A DNA stretch of 6,648 nucleotides. It comes from a virus. Taxonomy: Duplodnaviria > Heunggongvirae > Uroviricota > Caudoviricetes. Below the pieces are notes generated by a model. That model made no database searches. It was not told where the DNA came from and was given only the letters and a program-made list of their open reading frames with translations. Position 1 is the stretch's first letter. Every line of letters begins with the position of its first letter. The DNA lies in the IMG/VR virus record IMGVR_UViG_2526164689_000017, positions 1 to 6,648 of that record; one strand, written 5' to 3'. This document shows, one piece after another, positions 1 to 6,648 of the stretch. Position numbers and translations under genes: made by a program.

Positions 1-217
1 CTGCATAGCTGAATGACGTCACCATCCCCAGCGTATCCGTAAACTCATAACGGTATTTCACGTTAATCCCGTTAAGATTATCGCTACCGGGAGCGTTCGT
101 CCGGGCATGAAGATACCCCGCGCTCAGCGTGGCCTGCTGCTCAGACGCCCATGCAGGCGCGCCGGATACGGCCAGACAGATGGCTGCGGACAAAATGGCG
201 GCATAAAGTTTACGCAT
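1..217 (-). CDS. lom: Lom-like outer membrane protein (Ail/Lom/PagC family), N-terminal part; gene runs off the left edge of the window
   Basis: Not in the ORF track because it is truncated. Minus-strand ATG at 215-217 is preceded by GAGAGG about 5 nt upstream. My translation: MRKLYAAILSAAICLAVSGAPAWASEQQATLSAGYLHARTNAPGSDNLNGINVKYRYEFTDTLGMVTSFSYA. It has a signal-peptide-like N-terminus ending AWA, and the GINVKYRYE segment matches what I recall of lambda Lom. Position immediately downstream of J is as in lambda. Confidence 0.78.
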   Translation of the reverse strand, partial: MRKLYAAILSAAICLAVSGAPAWASEQQATLSAGYLHARTNAPGSDNLNGINVKYRYEFTDTLGMVTSFSYA

Positions 218-238
218 AATTACCTCTCGCTTTTCTGC

Positions 239-265
239 AATAAAAAAGGCGTCATTTCTGACGCC
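239..265 (-). terminator. Rho-independent terminator downstream of J
   Basis: Perfect 7-bp inverted repeat ggcgtca (248-254) / tgacgcc (259-265) with a 4-nt loop. On the minus strand it reads GGCGUCA-GAAA-UGACGCC followed by UUUUUUAUU (plus 239-247 aataaaaaa). It lies between the J stop (284-286) and the lom start (217). Confidence 0.7.
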
Positions 266-283
266 CGTTCTGGGTTATAAAAT

Positions 284-3200
284 TCAGCTGATACTGATAC
301 CTGCTGTGGATTTTTTCATCACCACAACCAGCAGATCGCTGATACTGGTTGTTGGTGTCCAGTTATTCGCTCCTGATGAAGATACGGTGAATGTCAGTGT
401 CAGCGTCCCCTGTCCGGCAGGCATATCTATAACTGAGGAAAATACGCCCTGAACATCCGTCGTGGACTGATTAAAAATCTCCTGACCATTGCGGGTCACT
501 CTTAACCGGCAGGTTGAATACCAGTATGACTGTTGGTTATTACTGTTGAAATTCTCATGCTTACCACCGCGGAATAACACTGGCGGTATCATGACCTGCC
601 GGTCAAACTTCTGATCATCACTGATTCTTACCGTGATGGTGCCACTGGCATAAGTGCTCGTGCGGGGGAAAGACTTGCTGACCGTTTTGACAATATCGCC
701 TTCAATCTGGTTGGCTGACAGTTTCCCCTTAATCTGACAGTTCTCATTAATCGTGACGTTGTTGAGCGTCCCTGAGTTCGCATTCACACTGCCACTGATA
801 TCCGCATTTTTCGCCGTCAGTCGCCCGTCCGGCGTCAGGGAAAATGCCGGAGGATTGCCGGATGACGTGATGCTCACCGCAAACAGTCGTTTCAGGAACA
901 CGTCGTTCATGAACAGCTGATTCCCCTGCGCCACAAATAACGGCGTGCTGTTGCCGCTCTCCGGATTTATCATCGCGATACGGTCAGCCAGCAGCAGTAT
1001 GTTGCTCAGTGGCTGGCCATCAGTATCCTCAATCCCTGCACCAATCCCGGCCACATAGGGAATGCCGTCTTTCGTTTTTTGAACCTTCAGCATGTACAGC
1101 GCAGCCAGGTCATCATTTGTGTCCTTCTGCACGCGCTGTATCTGCTGAATGGTGGCGCTCTGGTCTTCCAGCGTTTTACTGACCGTCTGTGTGATTTCAT
1201 TGCGGGTTTCTGTGATGGTGGTCTGCATTTCCGCCATCTCGTCCTTCAGCTGACTGTTGTCAATCTCTGCCCACAGCGCCTCTGCCAGATGCGTTTTTCC
1301 TATCTTTTCCCGGAAAAGTTCCAGATAGCCCGCAGCATCATTGCTCGCCCGTCCACTGGCTTCCACAAAAGCAGATTTACCCACCAGGTTGACGCTGCGC
1401 ACATAAAACCAGAAATCCTTTCCGGGCTTAATGTGCGGACCGGAGACACTCCACTGACTGCCGGTCCCCAGATAACGGGCAGAGGTTTCCACCTGTGCGG
1501 CGTCTGCAATTTTTGCCTCCGAAAACCAGAACTCAAACTGCACCGTCGGGTCATAAATGGTCAGTTTCGGGACTGCCGTTATCTGAAAATACCCCGGCGT
1601 CAGTTCAACACCGGCAGGCGCTGCCGGTGCGTTAATCCGGAACGTGGTGGTGGCGGGTTCGCCCTGCTGGCCATAGCTGTTAATCGCCCTGACCGTCAGG
1701 GTGTATTCCCCGAGAGGCAGGCCACTGAAACGGTGCTCCGTATCGGCAGTGATGGCGGTGGTCACCAGACGGCTGTCTTCTCCGCTTCCGCTGGTCAGGC
1801 GCAGACTGAAGCGCACACCCTTCACCACCCGCGGCGTGTCCCATTTCGCCTGTGCCAGATACTGACCGTCAGCCGCGCTCACCTCCACCGTCAGGTGCTG
1901 CACTGCCGGAGGGATGACGCTGTTCAGGGTGCCGCTCTGGTCGCTGTCAAAGTGCGCCCCGTTATCCACGATGGCTTCTTTTTCCGGTACGTGCTGCACT
2001 GCCGTGATGGCAAAGGTGCTGTCCGTGTTTTCCCGGATGGAGACACAGCGGAACAGGCGACGACGCAGTGACGGCAGGGAGAGTCCCCACACACCGTATG
2101 TCTCCACACCATCAGGCAGGGTGCTGACCTGTATCCGGTCCGGCGCGGGGTGTGCAGTGATGGCCACGCTCACCGGCTTACCGCTGCCGTTAATCAGGTT
2201 CACCGTGGCGGCACCTGTCTCCGGCAGGGTCACCTCACGGTCCAGTGTCAGGGTGCGGCTGGCGGCATCGATGGACAGGATACGTCCGCCGGTCATGGTC
2301 CCGGCATAGTCGTTATCACAGATTTCAATAATGTCTCCGGGTGTGTGACGCAGCCCCTGTGACCCGAGCGTGAAATCCACCGTCTGCGTTTCCAGCAGTC
2401 CGGTCTTTATCACCCACAGCCCGGCACGGTGGGCCTGACCGCGACTGGTGCAACCGAACGCATCCATCTTCAGCAGGTTGCGCCCGTAGCGCAGTATGGC
2501 TTCCGGGTCTTCCACCAGTTCCGTGGAGGTCTGCCAGCCGTTCTGCGGGTCGGTGTAATTCACCTCCACCGCCGTGTGGCGGTCCTTCAGGGCGCTGAAG
2601 CTGTAGCGAAACCCCACGCCGTTATCATCCACCACCACATCGCAGTTGGTGTACGGCCACACCACATCCGACGGGCGGTCCTGAACGAACGTCAGCGTCT
2701 GGCCGTTCCATACCGGCATACAGCGCATCGCCGAGCAGAAATCACTGAGAACGTCCCACGCCTTACGCTGTTGTGACAGGTACGCATTAAAGGTCATCCG
2801 CGGCTCTGTGCCCCCGAAGCCATCCGGGACACGCTGGTCACAGTACTGCCCGATGGCATACAGCGCCCATTTGTCCACGTCCGCGGCCCCCAGGCGTTTC
2901 CCCATCCCGTAGCGCGGGTGGGTCAGCATGTCCCACAGGCACCAGGCCGGGTTGTTGCTGTATGCCGGTTTCAGACTGCCGTCCCAGATACCACTGTACG
3001 TGCGTTTTTCCGGGTCATAGTTTGACGGCACCTGAATAATGCGACCGCGGATATGGTAGTTCACCGTCATCTGCTGACCGCCAAACTGCTCCGCATCCAC
3101 CTGCAGCCCCACAATCGCCGTGTTCGGGTAGCACTGTTTCACATCGATGATTTCGGTGTATGACGACCAGAGCGTCTTATTCTGCAGCTGGTCCGTGGTG

Positions 3201-3763
3201 CTGTCCGCCGTCTCCCTGACCATCCGGATGTTAAAGGGGCGCTCAGGCAGATTATCCAGAATCACCGAAGCGAGGAACTGTGAGGTGGTCTTGCCGTTAA
3301 TGGTGACATCCTTTTCCGTCACCCAGTTACCGTTACGCTGCAGCTGAATCAGCAGGCGGACGGATGCCGGGTTACGGTCACCCTGTGAGGTGGTCTGCAC
3401 CAGTGACTGCACCCCGAAGGTAACCCGCAGGCGGTCAATGTTCGCGGACGTAATGGTGCGCGTCACCGGCTTTGCCTTCGTCACTTCCACGCCCAGTGCG
3501 GTTTCAGAGCCGGATGACTCAAAACCTTCCGGCGGTGTCTGCTCCTGCTCCCCGGCGCGCCAGACCGCTGTCACACCGTGTATCACAGGATTACCGTCCG
3601 TGTCCGTCAGCGGGGTTTTGTTCACCAGAATACTCTGCAGCCCCTTCACCGGACCTTCCACCGGTCCCTCACCGATGGCGTCAATCACGCTCATCATCTG
3701 CGTGGACTTAAGATTGTCCTTTGCCTCAACCGGCGTGTGCGCCTTGCCGCCACCTTTACCCAC
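284..3763 (-). CDS. J: Central tail fibre / host specificity protein J (tip attachment protein), 1159 aa
   Basis: The track ORF begins [39 protein letters not shown], near-identical to the lambda J N-terminus as I recall it, with similarity continuing through the body (for example [50 protein letters not shown]). Start is GTG at 3761-3763 with GGAGAGGGGGA a few nt upstream on the minus strand. Stop is TGA at 284-286. Confidence 0.97.
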
Positions 3764-3798
3764 TCTGTCCCCCTCTCCTGTCTGATGTCTGAATCTGT

Positions 3799-3963
3799 TT
3801 ATGCCCCAAAAACGACAGGCACCCCGGAGGGTGCCTGTGTCATGACGGAATAAAATTTCTGAATTTCTTCACATTTTCTGTACGCCCCGTGGCAGATATC
3901 ATTCCCGGGCGTTACAGTTTTTTCGGGCCAATAAAAACAAAACCCCCTGTGGTTAATCTTCAT
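3799..3963 (-). CDS. Hypothetical small protein (54 aa) in the I-J spacer; weak candidate
   Basis: My own translation of the minus strand: ATG at 3961-3963, TAA at 3799-3801, giving [54 protein letters not shown]. Only a weak GGGA-type ribosome-binding site; uses rare AGG/AGA/GGG codons. The terminator hairpin at 3815-3838 lies inside its last 13 codons, so termination would precede the stop codon, which argues against a real gene. Confidence 0.15.
3803..3838 (-). terminator. Terminator-like hairpin between I and J, minus-strand orientation
   Basis: Perfect 10-bp inverted repeat acaggcaccc (3815-3824) / gggtgcctgt (3829-3838) with loop cgga. On the minus strand the hairpin is followed by CGUUUUUGGGG (plus 3804-3814). 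Whether it terminates or acts as a stability or processing element cannot be told from sequence. Confidence 0.5.
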
Positions 3964-3970
3964 TTTCTGT

Positions 3971-4003
3971 TCCCGCAGCCTCCATACACTGCGGGATTTT
4001 TTT
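3971..4003 (+). terminator. Terminator-like hairpin with U-tract in plus-strand orientation, just 3' of the I stop codon
   Basis: 8-bp stem tcccgcag (3971-3978) / ctgcggga (3989-3996) with a 10-nt loop cctccataca, followed on the plus strand by seven T (3997-4003). On the minus strand the tract is A-rich upstream of the stem, so the signal is plus-oriented, antisense to the tail operon. Confidence 0.4.
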
Positions 4004-4008
4004 ATGCT

Positions 4009-4689
4009 TTACCCCTGCCGCCCGATAACCACCACCTTCCCGCCACCACCTTCATCACGGGTGCTGATGTCCTGGGAGATTCGCCGGGAGCCAACCAGCA
4101 TTTCACCGTAAGGCACCGGCATCGGGTTCCCCTGGGCAATCATGTTATCCAGCGAGGAAAAGTACGTGTTCTGTCTGCCGTTATCCGTTGCCCTGTATTC
4201 CGGTGTTTTTGGCTTCGGGGCAAGCATCTGTGCCACACCACCCAGTATCATGCTGGCCCCCAGTGAAAACAGCATCGTGGTGGCAGAAAAACCACCGGCT
4301 GCCAGGGCTGAACCCCATAACGCCATTGATGCCCCGGCCGTGAAGAACGACCCCACGATGGCTGCCGCCCCCAGCACAATCTGCAGTCCGCCCTTTCCGG
4401 CTCCGGCCAGTCGCGGCACAATATGGATGACCGCCCCCTCACCCAGAGGTTCGTGAAGACGGGCGTACACCGCCTCCGGTGCCGTGTCCTCACCGCGAAT
4501 ACGTATCTGGTACCAGCCTTCGTTCATCTGACGGCGGAATCCCGGCACCTGTAACGACAGCGCCCGGATGGCTTCCGCTGCCGTGTTCACATACAGGCTG
4601 AGGCGGCGGCCAAATCGTTGCAAATCCCCGTGAAGGCAGATGCGTGCCAGTGGCGGTGACGCCAGACAGAATGCGTTCGTCGTTGCCAT
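4009..4689 (-). CDS. I: Tail assembly protein I, 226 aa
   Basis: The track ORF begins MATTNAFCLASPPLARICLHGDLQRFGRRLSLYVNTAAEAIRAL and ends in a Gly/Ala-rich hydrophobic segment, closely matching lambda I as recalled. Stop is TAA at 4009-4011. The start overlaps the 3' end of K by 103 nt in another frame. Confidence 0.93.
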   Translation of the reverse strand: MATTNAFCLASPPLARICLHGDLQRFGRRLSLYVNTAAEAIRALSLQVPGFRRQMNEGWYQIRIRGEDTAPEAVYARLHEPLGEGAVIHIVPRLAGAGKGGLQIVLGAAAIVGSFFTAGASMALWGSALAAGGFSATTMLFSLGASMILGGVAQMLAPKPKTPEYRATDNGRQNTYFSSLDNMIAQGNPMPVPYGEMLVGSRRISQDISTRDEGGGGKVVVIGRQG

Positions 4690-5330
4690 TTTTCGGAATA
4701 CCTCTCCCGTTTACTCAGTTGTTCAGGCAGATGGTGAAGCAGCTCACCGTTGCCGCAGTATATGGCGGCATGATTGGCCACCGATGCGCCAAAGCAGCAC
4801 AGCAGGATATCGCCAGGCTGTGCGGAAGGCAGGGAAATCCTGTAAAAACCAGTCGCCTCCATATTGTCCAGGTACAGGTTCTGACCGTTGCGCCACCAGT
4901 CATCCTCACGCTCAAAATCCGGCATATCAATTCCCGCCAGATGGTATGCATCCCGGAACAGCGTGTAACAGTCCGTCACCCCGTGCTCAAAGCGCCGTCC
5001 TGTCAGATGCGGCACACAGCGGAATTTATGAATCTCACCCCGGCAGACCAGCCACCAGGACAGTGCACTCTGCATCTGCAGCCGCCGGTCGGCCTCACTC
5101 AGCCAGGGCAGACCACCGGGATGACTGTGGACCAGTGCCACAATCTCCCCCTGCATTTCTGCCCGCAGCCAGTCTTCCGGTGCAATACGAAAATACGCCT
5201 CCGGCTCTGCAGAGATATTCACACAAGGGATATACCGCTCCCCCTCCGGCGTTCTCACCACGAAGCCGCACGACTCCGCAGGCGCACACCGCCGGGCATG
5301 CGCCAGAATCGCTGATTCAGTCTGTGTCAT
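4587..5330 (-). CDS. K: Tail assembly protein K, 247 aa from the internal Met of the 334-aa track ORF
   Basis: The segment from MTQTESAILAHARRCAPAESCGFVV onward matches lambda K as recalled. It contains a JAMM/MPN metalloprotease motif (HSHPGGLPWLSEAD, HxHx7Sx2D) and an NlpC/P60-like Cys/His pair (DCYTLF and NHAAIY). ATG at 5328-5330 lies 10 nt after the L stop. The upstream 87 codons of the track ORF overlap L and are rejected. Confidence 0.92.
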   Translation of the reverse strand: MTQTESAILAHARRCAPAESCGFVVRTPEGERYIPCVNISAEPEAYFRIAPEDWLRAEMQGEIVALVHSHPGGLPWLSEADRRLQMQSALSWWLVCRGEIHKFRCVPHLTGRRFEHGVTDCYTLFRDAYHLAGIDMPDFEREDDWWRNGQNLYLDNMEATGFYRISLPSAQPGDILLCCFGASVANHAAIYCGNGELLHHLPEQLSKRERYSEKWQRRTHSVWRHRHWHASAFTGICNDLAAASACM

Positions 5331-5340
5331 AAACCGGGAT

Positions 5341-6039
5341 TTACTGCGAAAGTTTATTAATGGAAAGGAAACCGCCAAAATTAGCCACCATGCCGCGCAT
5401 CTCACACCCGCGCATGCACTTGCTGCATCTGTCCTTACGGATATCGGTGGTGGGTTTATCGAACTCATCCGCCACAGCCCCGCCCGTGTAACCACACTCA
5501 TCAGAGCGGTAGGTCCACATACAGGTATTCGCCAGCATAATGCGACCGGGAAACAGCGCTCCGTCCGTCTCCGTCGGTGTTGCCAGCACAAACGAGGCTG
5601 TCATGGCCGTCAGCTCTGACATCTGCTCCACCACCCAGCGGTCGCTCAGCTCCTGCTCCGGGTCCGCTTCCGGATTGCCCGCCACAAAATTCACCGCATC
5701 CAGAAAACGGGCATACACCCGGCGGCGGACCACCGTGGCCCCCACCAGGCTCTGCAGGTCCTCCGCCATCCCGGTGACCAGACCAAACAGATTCGACACC
5801 GTCAGCGACGGGCGGGCACTGCTGCCCTTCCCGTTCATCTCAAAGCCACTGCCGTCAATCGGGTATGCCTGGTACTTCCGCCCCTGCCAGGTCACCGGCT
5901 CCCCTTTTTCATTCAGCTCATTACAGAAAAAATACCGCTCACCACCCTGGGCCTTCAGGTCAATTTCCCAGAGCACCACCCGCGGTGACTGCTCTGATTT
6001 AACCGACTCGTTCAGGCTTTCCCCGTGAATATGCTGCAT
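5341..6039 (-). CDS. L: Minor tail protein L, 232 aa
   Basis: The track ORF starts MQHIHGESLNESVKSEQSPRVVLWEIDLKAQGGERYFFCNELNEKGEPVTWQGRKYQ and ends FGGFLSINKLSQ, closely matching lambda L as recalled. The ATG overlaps the M stop as ATGA. Confidence 0.95.
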   Translation of the reverse strand: MQHIHGESLNESVKSEQSPRVVLWEIDLKAQGGERYFFCNELNEKGEPVTWQGRKYQAYPIDGSGFEMNGKGSSARPSLTVSNLFGLVTGMAEDLQSLVGATVVRRRVYARFLDAVNFVAGNPEADPEQELSDRWVVEQMSELTAMTASFVLATPTETDGALFPGRIMLANTCMWTYRSDECGYTGGAVADEFDKPTTDIRKDRCSKCMRGCEMRGMVANFGGFLSINKLSQ

Positions 6040-6380
6040 CAGTTCACCACCTGCTCAATCGTACAGCTGAAATCACTGTACCGGACGTTATCCGTGACGC
6101 TCCACTCCCGGCACACCACCCTCACCGTCCGGTTATGTTTCGGCGGTCGCCACAAAAAGGCACGGTAACCACCATGCCAGGATAAAAATTCATCCAGCCA
6201 GCGCCGGGTTGACTCATCCGTCACCCGGAACACCGCCTGAAACGTCTTCAGTTGAGGATTCAGTCCTGTGGGGCGACGCTGTTCATAACCGTCACCAAAC
6301 CGTACCCTCGCCACCGACGGTTTCTCACTCACCTGCATCCCTTCACGCGGGACCAGATGCAGCGTTTTTATCTCAGCCAC
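6039..6380 (-). CDS. M: Minor tail protein M, 113 aa
   Basis: The track ORF contains VRFGDGYEQRRP and ends CTIEQVVN, matching lambda M (VRFGDGY... EQVVN) as recalled. GTG start at 6378-6380 overlaps the H stop at 6373-6375. Position between H and L fits. Confidence 0.9.
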   Translation of the reverse strand: MAEIKTLHLVPREGMQVSEKPSVARVRFGDGYEQRRPTGLNPQLKTFQAVFRVTDESTRRWLDEFLSWHGGYRAFLWRPPKHNRTVRVVCREWSVTDNVRYSDFSCTIEQVVN

Positions 6381-6648
6381 TCAGCATTCCTCCGTCACGT
6401 CGCATGGACAGCATCACCGCCTGCACCCGCTGGTCAATCAGCTGCACAAGACTGCCTGCCGCCTCCGCCCCTATCTGTCCGTTAGCCCCGTCATTCTGAA
6501 TGGCGATGTGGTAGACCGGGGAATACACCAGACCGGCACTGCCGTTCATACTGCCCACCGCGCGTACGCCCAGCGAGCCATCCGCCGCCCGGGTCAGGGG
6601 CATAATGGCTTCAGGTCCGGCTTCCCCCATCAGCCCGGCCCTTTGCAA
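6373..6648 (-). CDS. H: Tail tape measure protein H, C-terminal part; gene continues beyond the right edge of the window
   Basis: Open frame to the window edge on the minus strand, in the gene position of lambda H immediately upstream of M. The C-terminal segment IQNDGANGQIGAEAAG...MRRDGGMLSG resembles the lambda H C-terminus as I recall it. Stop is TGA at 6373-6375. Confidence 0.82.
   Translation of the reverse strand: MQRAGLMGEAGPEAIMPLTRAADGSLGVRAVGSMNGSAGLVYSPVYHIAIQNDGANGQIGAEAAGSLVQLIDQRVQAVMLSMRRDGGMLSG

Follow-up and report, generated by a model that had tools for sequence, protein, structure and literature searches.

A terminator-like hairpin at the I-J junction of the lambda-like tail operon

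What is the function of a stable G+C-rich hairpin with a U tract that sits within a late tail operon, directly upstream of the gene for the tail-tip protein J? The question is raised by a 6,648-nucleotide stretch of a tailed-phage genome (positions 1 to 6,648 of IMG/VR record IMGVR_UViG_2526164689_000017), termed the window. The window holds, in reverse complement, a lambda-like tail module of the type carried by Shiga-toxin and BP-4795-type phages, with all genes on the minus strand (Table 1) and a J protein that is 77% identical to lambda J over the first 200 amino acids. Ten phage records match the segment 3700-4060, in which the I-J spacer lies, at 99% identity or more. Many O26, O103 and O157 genomes contain the spacer itself at 100% identity, and those having any copy have a median of four. 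No annotation of the spacer is present in any record examined.

Table 1. Coordinates of genes and RNA features in the window, listed from the upstream to the downstream end of the tail operon
Feature	Position	Strand	Details
H, end only		minus	
M	6380..6039	minus	Pfam
L	6039..5341	minus	Pfam
K		minus	Pfam
I, tail assembly protein I	4689..4009	minus	stop TAA 4011-4009; Pfam Lambda_tail_I, E = 4e-15
I-J intergenic spacer	3764..4008	minus	245 nt vs 60 nt in lambda
Intrinsic terminator of the PasB homologue	3971..4003	plus	UCCCGCAG, 10-nt loop, CUGCGGGA, U7; score +25.9
PasB homologue	3925..4003	plus	antisense to the late operon; 5' end placed by homology to the 83-nt PasB
A/T-rich conserved block	3839..3881	plus	contains TTCACA 3868-3873; between the hairpin and the PasB body
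I-J hairpin, ACAGGCACCC-UCCG-GGGUGCCUGU	3838..3815	minus	stem arms 3838-3829 and 3824-3815, loop 3828-3825
U5 tract	3812..3808	minus	after CG spacer 3814-3813; followed by GGGG
J, tail-tip / host-specificity protein	3763..284	minus	GTG start, 1159 aa; Pfam GpJ domains
Terminator-like hairpin, GGGCGUCA-GAAA-UGACGCCU and U run	242..266	minus	score +23.8
lom, first 72 codons	217..2	minus	runs off the window; Pfam Ail_Lom, 1.6e-37

Structure and statistics of the hairpin upstream of J

Read 5' to 3' on the minus strand, the hairpin has a perfect 10-bp stem in which all 10 pairs are Watson-Crick and 7 are G-C, capped by a C(UCCG)G loop of the UNCG type. A G+C-rich stem of this length with a short loop falls within the form of an intrinsic terminator (a stem of about 5-14 bp). 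This strand also encodes M, L, K, I, J and lom, which places the structure in the sense orientation inside the late tail operon, on the transcribed strand and downstream of a transcription unit. The stem, the tetraloop, the U5 run, the orientation and the site before J all agree with a preliminary description of this DNA, in which the hairpin was assigned to an interval (3803-3838) that does enclose it and was placed about 40 nt upstream of J; the distance from the last U to the GTG at 3763 measures 44 nt. RNA folding, proposed there as a check, gives -26.4 kcal/mol for 3850..3795 (z = -3.7) with 1 of 200 shuffled sequences as stable, and -20.8 kcal/mol for the hairpin by itself.

A terminator-pattern scan of the window accepts the site and returns it as the best match. 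Perfect stems of at least 10 bp arise in 5% of 200 dinucleotide-preserving shuffles of the whole window, and the combination of such a stem with a T-rich tail arises in 0.5% of the same 200 shuffles. The tail of the window allele has a score of 1.34 compared with 2.8-3.1 for sister alleles having UG in place of CG, and its U tract is the weakest of the alleles. The d'Aubenton-Carafa-type score of the window allele, a rough value as modern energy parameters were used, is -8.9 and lies below the threshold, compared with +17.4 for the Sakai allele, +15.0 for type B, +4.1 for E2348, +30.4 for HK022 and +18.6 for lambda (in a short-stem register). The low score of the window allele arises because the CG dinucleotide separates the stem from the U5 run. 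The tail on the plus strand, GUCAUGACGG, is not rich in U, which rules out a bidirectional terminator for the window allele; in some relatives the D-type hairpin may act in both directions.

Pattern scanning and inspection by eye reveal no convincing sense-strand sigma-70 promoter in the spacer of the window allele, and Rfam covariance models searched against both strands of the whole window give no match at E <= 1, with AgvB, AsxR and STnc100 recovered in a control locus by the same search. An ATG open reading frame of 54 amino acids (3963..3799, minus strand) passes through the hairpin and the U run and is very probably not a gene, because in the Sakai allele an open reading frame of 39 amino acids takes the conserved block in another frame. 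A tandem heptamer, CAGACAU-CAGACAG (3778-3791, minus strand), lies downstream of the hairpin and ahead of the J ribosome-binding site; one relative (L056) has four copies of the heptamer, indicating that the length of the J leader varies by 7-nt steps.

The second terminator-like hairpin listed in Table 1 sits between the J stop codon (286-284) and the start (217) of lom, a gene that is expressed in the lysogen, and lambda has an analogous sense hairpin between J and lom. From these candidate signals J appears to be bracketed by stop signals, both in the window and in lambda. A further terminator-like hairpin, GGCAUGGU-GGUU-ACCGUGCC followed by UUUUUGUGG, is located on the sense strand inside gene M (6159-6178, minus strand).

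The antisense PasB homologue and its relation to the hairpin

The opposite strand of the spacer carries a homologue of PasB, a published RNA that is unannotated in the phage and RefSeq records examined and is evidently absent from Rfam 15. PasB is an 83-nt Hfq-dependent RNA from prophage PP6 of EPEC E2348/69, given in Table S6 of Pearl Mizrahi et al. 2021 (PMC8550237) with the coordinates 1466343 to 1466261 and the northern probe AATCCCGCAGTGATCGCGGAGCT; its neighbours E2348C_1436 (I) and E2348C_1437 (J) are encoded on the other strand. In the E2348/69 locus, located by those table entries, PasB ends in a U7 run 6 nt from the I stop codon and the probe covers the terminator hairpin. The window copy corresponds to the tabulated RNA both in sequence and in position, lying in the I-J gap antisense to the tail genes, with 77% identity over 3925-4003 and a 3' half that is conserved far better than the 5' half. 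Its terminator hairpin occupies 3971-3996 and the U7 run ends 5 nt from the I stop codon; the terminator stem is kept in all relatives and the loop is variable. A start near 3909 is possible should the -10 element be TATCAT (3897-3902). The A/T-rich block at 3839..3881 probably corresponds to the -35 element of pasB together with the promoter DNA upstream of it. Inspection of the B and C alleles shows another TTCACA at a distance of 16 nt from AATAAT/TATAAT. The pasB promoter falls below the threshold of the pattern scan and the assignment of -10 and -35 elements is tentative.

Three RNAs from O157 Sakai, EcOnc22, EcOnc23 and EcOnc24 of prophages Sp15, Sp14 and Sp11 (PMC4104026 Table S2, Tree et al. 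2014), are about 85 nt by northern blot, are destabilised without Hfq and are encoded on the plus strand relative to minus-strand tail genes (PMC4104026). Placed uncorrected on NC_002695.2 their peaks all lie 22-84 nt from J starts, which taken at face value would have an Hfq peak opposite the hairpin on the antisense strand. This placement is wrong, as the coordinates refer to an older Sakai record. The shift relative to NC_002695.2 is about +142 at 1.27 Mb and +137 to +146 at 1.94 Mb (from AgvB and stx2B) and was assumed to be +128 to +142 at 2.2-2.9 Mb, and the corrected peaks lie about 150-225 nt from J, on the PasB-like RNA and in the same half of the spacer. Coordinates from Table S2 of PMC4104026 used unchanged on NC_002695.2 place the peaks on wrong features. 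The position, strand, size (83 vs about 85 nt) and Hfq dependence indicate that EcOnc22-24 and PasB are very probably one sRNA family. The anti-sRNAs AgvB and AsxR were considered as the content of the spacer and rejected, because both map to the PR' moron site, away from the tail region.

The PasB RNA does not include the I-J hairpin, which is encoded on the other strand, upstream of the pasB promoter. In the preliminary description the hairpin was proposed to stop transcripts initiated at a promoter in the spacer before they reach J. This part of the proposal finds no counterpart in the documented transcription of the spacer, where the only unit is PasB on the opposite strand; pasB points away from J, and the only documented spacer promoter does not, therefore, feed the I-J hairpin. 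In the expression values tabulated for an EPEC lysogen, the tail genes are nearly silent (baseMean 3-15) and pasB is expressed (482-1082) (PMC8550237).

Hairpins at the I-J junction of close and distant relatives

Close relatives were compared using 79 usable IMG/VR loci with J N termini 94-100% identical. A sense hairpin followed by a U tract is present at the I-J junction in 71 of the 79, belonging to the family of the window hairpin in 47 and differing in 24. The window family comprises ACAGGCACCC/GGGUGCCUGU, ACAGGCAUCC/GGAUGCCUGU, several U.G intermediates and others, with ACAGGCAUCC/GGAUGCCUGU representing a double change from C-G to U-A with respect to the window allele. The E2348 allele of this family has a 6-nt loop, and two recombinant alleles contain a C.A mismatch. 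In the alignment of the family 98% of cells that should pair do so, compared with 33-48% when the partners are slid out of register; the double change is confined to one pair (C-G, U-A, U.G), and as 134 of 500 column shuffles reach the same score the covariation is not significant. Among 24 distinct spacers the best-conserved block consists of the hairpin, the U run and the 40 nt before them with column identities of 0.91-0.95, and the 5' half of PasB has a mean column identity of 0.76-0.83. The 24 loci of the second group have at the equivalent place an unrelated hairpin, ACCCCGGUAUC-UGCU-GAUACCGGGGU followed by UUCUCUUU, which in one case (L071) occurs in a locus with no PasB. The remaining 8 of the 79 loci are without a sense hairpin, an antisense sodC cassette having replaced both the hairpin and the pasB promoter, which indicates that the element is dispensable and not essential.

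Several of these loci display rearrangements of the spacer. The sodC cassette (Cu,Zn superoxide dismutase) is found in L014 (at about 650-1500), L017, L029, L031, L041, L051, L084 and L086, has its own terminator, and leaves behind a promoterless 3' part of PasB. Hybrid hairpins occur in L019 and L053, in which the arms and outer flanks derive from different allele types with the crossover inside the 24-nt hairpin, and in L019 the C.A mismatch was gained through this recombination. An alternative J-proximal module is present in L025, L070 and similar loci, which have 342-nt spacers; the module combines a different and possibly bidirectional hairpin, AAAACCCCGGUAUC-UGCU-GAUACCGGGGUUUCUCUUU, with another small hairpin and lengthens the DNA ahead of J by about 100 nt, and L071 has it without PasB. 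The position of PasB is taken in L042 and L050 by a different antisense unit with an unrelated body, which may be another sRNA in the same slot, terminated on the antisense strand by CUCCCGUAAUA...UAUUACGGGAG and a U run unrelated to those of PasB.

Hairpins that share no homology with the window allele are found at the same junction in more distant phages. Lambda has AAACCGCC-UGCG-GGCGGUUU followed by UGUCAUUUAU, located 18 nt after the I stop codon, with a folding energy of -21 kcal/mol (z = -2.8), and in lambda-like prophages the stem is kept and the loop varies between UGCG, UCCG and UCAG. A set of 78 J loci of the HK022/HK97 type, representing 68 distinct upstream sequences, shows a hairpin of the GCCACC-UUCG-GGUGGC type with U5-8 at 15-18 nt before J in 66 of the 68; the opposite strand of these 150-nt segments gave no terminator-like match. 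In Serratia phage Carrot the hairpin is AAAGCCCC-UAUCCU-GGGGCUUU followed by U7. Salmonella phage S137 has an I-J gap of 9 nt and is without the hairpin. Non-homologous hairpins thus recur at the I-J position in four lineages, and the U tract is always on the sense side. A search of genome contigs returned mostly lambda itself and so added little diversity. Many of the lambda-type J matches in that search (77% identical to the window J, as is lambda J) are on contigs L095-L118, which are assigned to unrelated taxa (Streptomyces, Bacillus-like, Bradyrhizobium, Shewanella and various MAGs) and include several of very low coverage; these look like lambda DNA contamination of assemblies.

The relation of the hairpin to the material inserted beside it can be seen from these layouts. 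The HK022 record annotates genes 22 and 23 as 'moron gene product' between the I-like gene and the hairpin, with gene 23 antisense, and the inserts (PasB in the window, genes 22/23 in HK022) lie between the I stop codon and the hairpin. The spacer as a whole has the makeup of a moron, that is, extra DNA between adjacent genes with its own promoter, gene and terminator. The hairpin does not belong to the inserted unit, because lambda, HK97-type phages, Carrot and the PasB-less L071 have a hairpin without the insert. Comparison of the sequences accordingly places the hairpin as a positional feature of the I-J junction older than the PasB insertion, and the junction itself is a recurrent insertion slot, filled by PasB, HK022 genes 22/23 or sodC depending on the phage.

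Interpretation and comparison with known systems

The interpretation toward which the evidence leans, if only modestly, is that the hairpin is of the intrinsic (Rho-independent) terminator type and is kept by lambda-like tail modules at the I-J junction, where it would stop polymerase travelling without Q. Hairpins of non-homologous sequence are repeatedly accompanied by a U tract, and invariably on the sense side, which favors intrinsic termination over a mere stable stem. RNA polymerase unmodified by the phage Q protein would stop or be attenuated at the hairpin; such polymerase could arrive by read-through, from divergent firing at the pasB promoter, or from spurious initiation within the spacer or the tail genes. 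Efficient transcription of J would then be restricted to lytic growth, when Q-modified polymerase would ignore the hairpin. Q-modified polymerase reads through terminators over the whole lambda late operon; the Q gene lies outside the window. As the U tract of the window allele is offset by CG, termination by this allele would probably be partial. The near silence of the tail genes in the EPEC lysogen while pasB is expressed, in so far as the tabulated values go, is consistent with termination before J. Set against it, the pattern scan identified no sense-strand promoter needing a stop, and the hairpin is missing from 8 of the 79 close relatives and from S137. Levels of mRNA across the lambda late operon are reportedly roughly uniform, as Sampson et al. 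are said to have found in 1988, which argues against strong attenuation in lytic growth yet is compatible with read-through by Q-modified polymerase.

A role as an RNA stability or processing element in place of a terminator, which the preliminary description also offered, is judged unlikely. The hairpin might shield the upstream tail-assembly message from 3'-to-5' exonucleases after a cleavage in the long J message, or it might stabilise a processed J mRNA from a position near the 5' end of that RNA. In phages carrying PasB the processing could follow RNase III cutting of the duplex between PasB and the late mRNA; a stretch of about 80 nt of that mRNA, immediately before the hairpin, has perfect complementarity to PasB. 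Stabilisation of mRNA by intercistronic hairpins is well established, the hairpin, which is very stable (-20.8 kcal/mol), occupies one of the rare stretches of this long polycistronic message that are not translated, and the U tract of the window allele is weak. However, neither an exonuclease block nor a 5' stabiliser requires the sense-side U tract that is present in every lineage examined, and in lambda and most HK97-type phages the hairpin occurs without any antisense sRNA.

Less probable again, and regarded here as quite improbable, is that the hairpin forms the 3' end (a terminator and Hfq-binding module) of an undescribed sense sRNA of about 55-85 nt, divergent from pasB and ending at 3808. 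The 40 nt upstream are as conserved as the hairpin (0.91-0.95), which would be in keeping with an RNA body; the block is, however, equally well explained as the -35 and upstream region of pasB. A U-rich stretch, AAAUUUUAUUCC, adjoins the stem as in Hfq-binding modules, and the B and C alleles have by inspection an extended -10-like element, TGTGAAAAT, at the right distance, but the window allele has no convincing sigma-70 promoter on the sense strand. Hfq-CRAC data from O157 Sakai contain 87-390 reads on the tail-gene strand over three I-J spacers in all five samples (PMC4104026). The published sRNA list kept only peaks antisense to coding regions or more than 100 bp from them (PMC4104026), and a sense RNA so close to J would have been filtered from it. 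These sense reads nonetheless amount to about 1% of the antisense signal (whole-spacer counts, with 20,847-33,250 antisense reads in three samples), the parts consulted of the EPEC RIL-seq tables (PMC8550237) list no sense-strand RNA from the I-J gap, and neither strand has an Rfam match.

The 24-bp perfect palindrome is highly unlikely to act as DNA, either as the site of a dimeric regulator for the pasB promoter about 80-110 bp away or as a recombination linker. The pasB promoter region does have a perfect inverted repeat on its upstream side, symmetric double changes would also be expected at a palindromic protein site, and the L019 and L053 crossovers fall inside the hairpin with flanks of different types. 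The U.G intermediates, however, preserve RNA pairing and break DNA symmetry, the lambda, HK97-type and Serratia hairpins have one-sided U tracts and unrelated sequences and are found without pasB, and recombination inside a conserved stretch is a consequence of conservation and not of function. There is similarly very little to recommend a fortuitous or vestigial hairpin without function in this prophage. The hairpin is missing from 8 of the 79 relatives, no allele has a weaker tail than that of the window, and many of these prophages are defective; such a structure, however, is found in only 0.5% of shuffles, lies in the most conserved part of the spacer and has independent counterparts at the same position in four lineages.

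PasB, EcOnc22-24, terminators inside Q-dependent operons and morons at late-gene junctions are already known. The I-J hairpin and its lambda counterpart are not described in the searchable literature, in which a full-text search with the window and lambda hairpin sequences found no paper and a keyword search for a described I-J terminator found nothing relevant. The more useful outcome is comparative: a terminator-like signal usually precedes J, and the I-J gap has received inserts repeatedly and is bounded on its J side by a terminator-like hairpin in most lineages; this offers annotators a landmark for prophage sRNAs and morons. If the hairpin stops unmodified polymerase it would help explain the silence of J in lysogens of the dozens of lambda-like prophages of pathogenic E. 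coli, while PasB and the cargo genes (lom, sodC) in the neighbouring gaps are expressed from their own promoters. Were the hairpin instead the end of a sense sRNA, Shiga-toxin-type prophages would have two Hfq-binding RNAs transcribed divergently from the I-J gap. The current understanding of lambdoid late transcription is not overturned by either.

Comparison with characterised systems sets the hairpin apart from its immediate neighbor. The window copy of PasB/EcOnc22-24 is 77% identical, occupies the same spacer and has the same terminator stem and U7 on the plus strand, and the hairpin, as an element of the other strand, is distinct from that RNA. The 3' module of Hfq-dependent sRNAs, which Ishikawa et al. 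reportedly defined in 2012 as a U-rich stretch, a terminator hairpin and a poly-U tail, has all three of its parts on the I-J sense strand as a U-rich stretch, the hairpin and U5; unlike Hfq-dependent sRNAs, this strand is without a known promoter, transcript or named RNA and has low-level Hfq-CRAC reads only. Intercistronic hairpins that stabilise mRNA, such as the REP elements in malEFG, need no U tract. Both they and the I-J hairpins are stable stem-loops located where a polycistronic mRNA is not translated; the I-J hairpins add a U tract in all lineages.

The morons of HK97 and HK022, reportedly described by Juhala et al. in 2000, are said to be extra genes with their own promoter and terminator between conserved late genes. 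The HK022 layout is that of the window, with I, an antisense insert, a sense hairpin and J in order; unlike a moron component, the I-J hairpin is outside the insert, as lambda, most HK97-type phages and L071 have the hairpin without it. The Q-antiterminated terminators of late operons (tR' and those downstream) share with the I-J hairpin the G+C-rich stem, the UNCG-type tetraloop, the 3' U tract and the location on the transcribed strand, inside an operon that is read through by Q-modified polymerase. In the window the hairpin differs from these tR'-type terminators in having its U tract offset by 2 nt and in standing 44 nt before an essential structural gene, in place of the start or the end of an operon.
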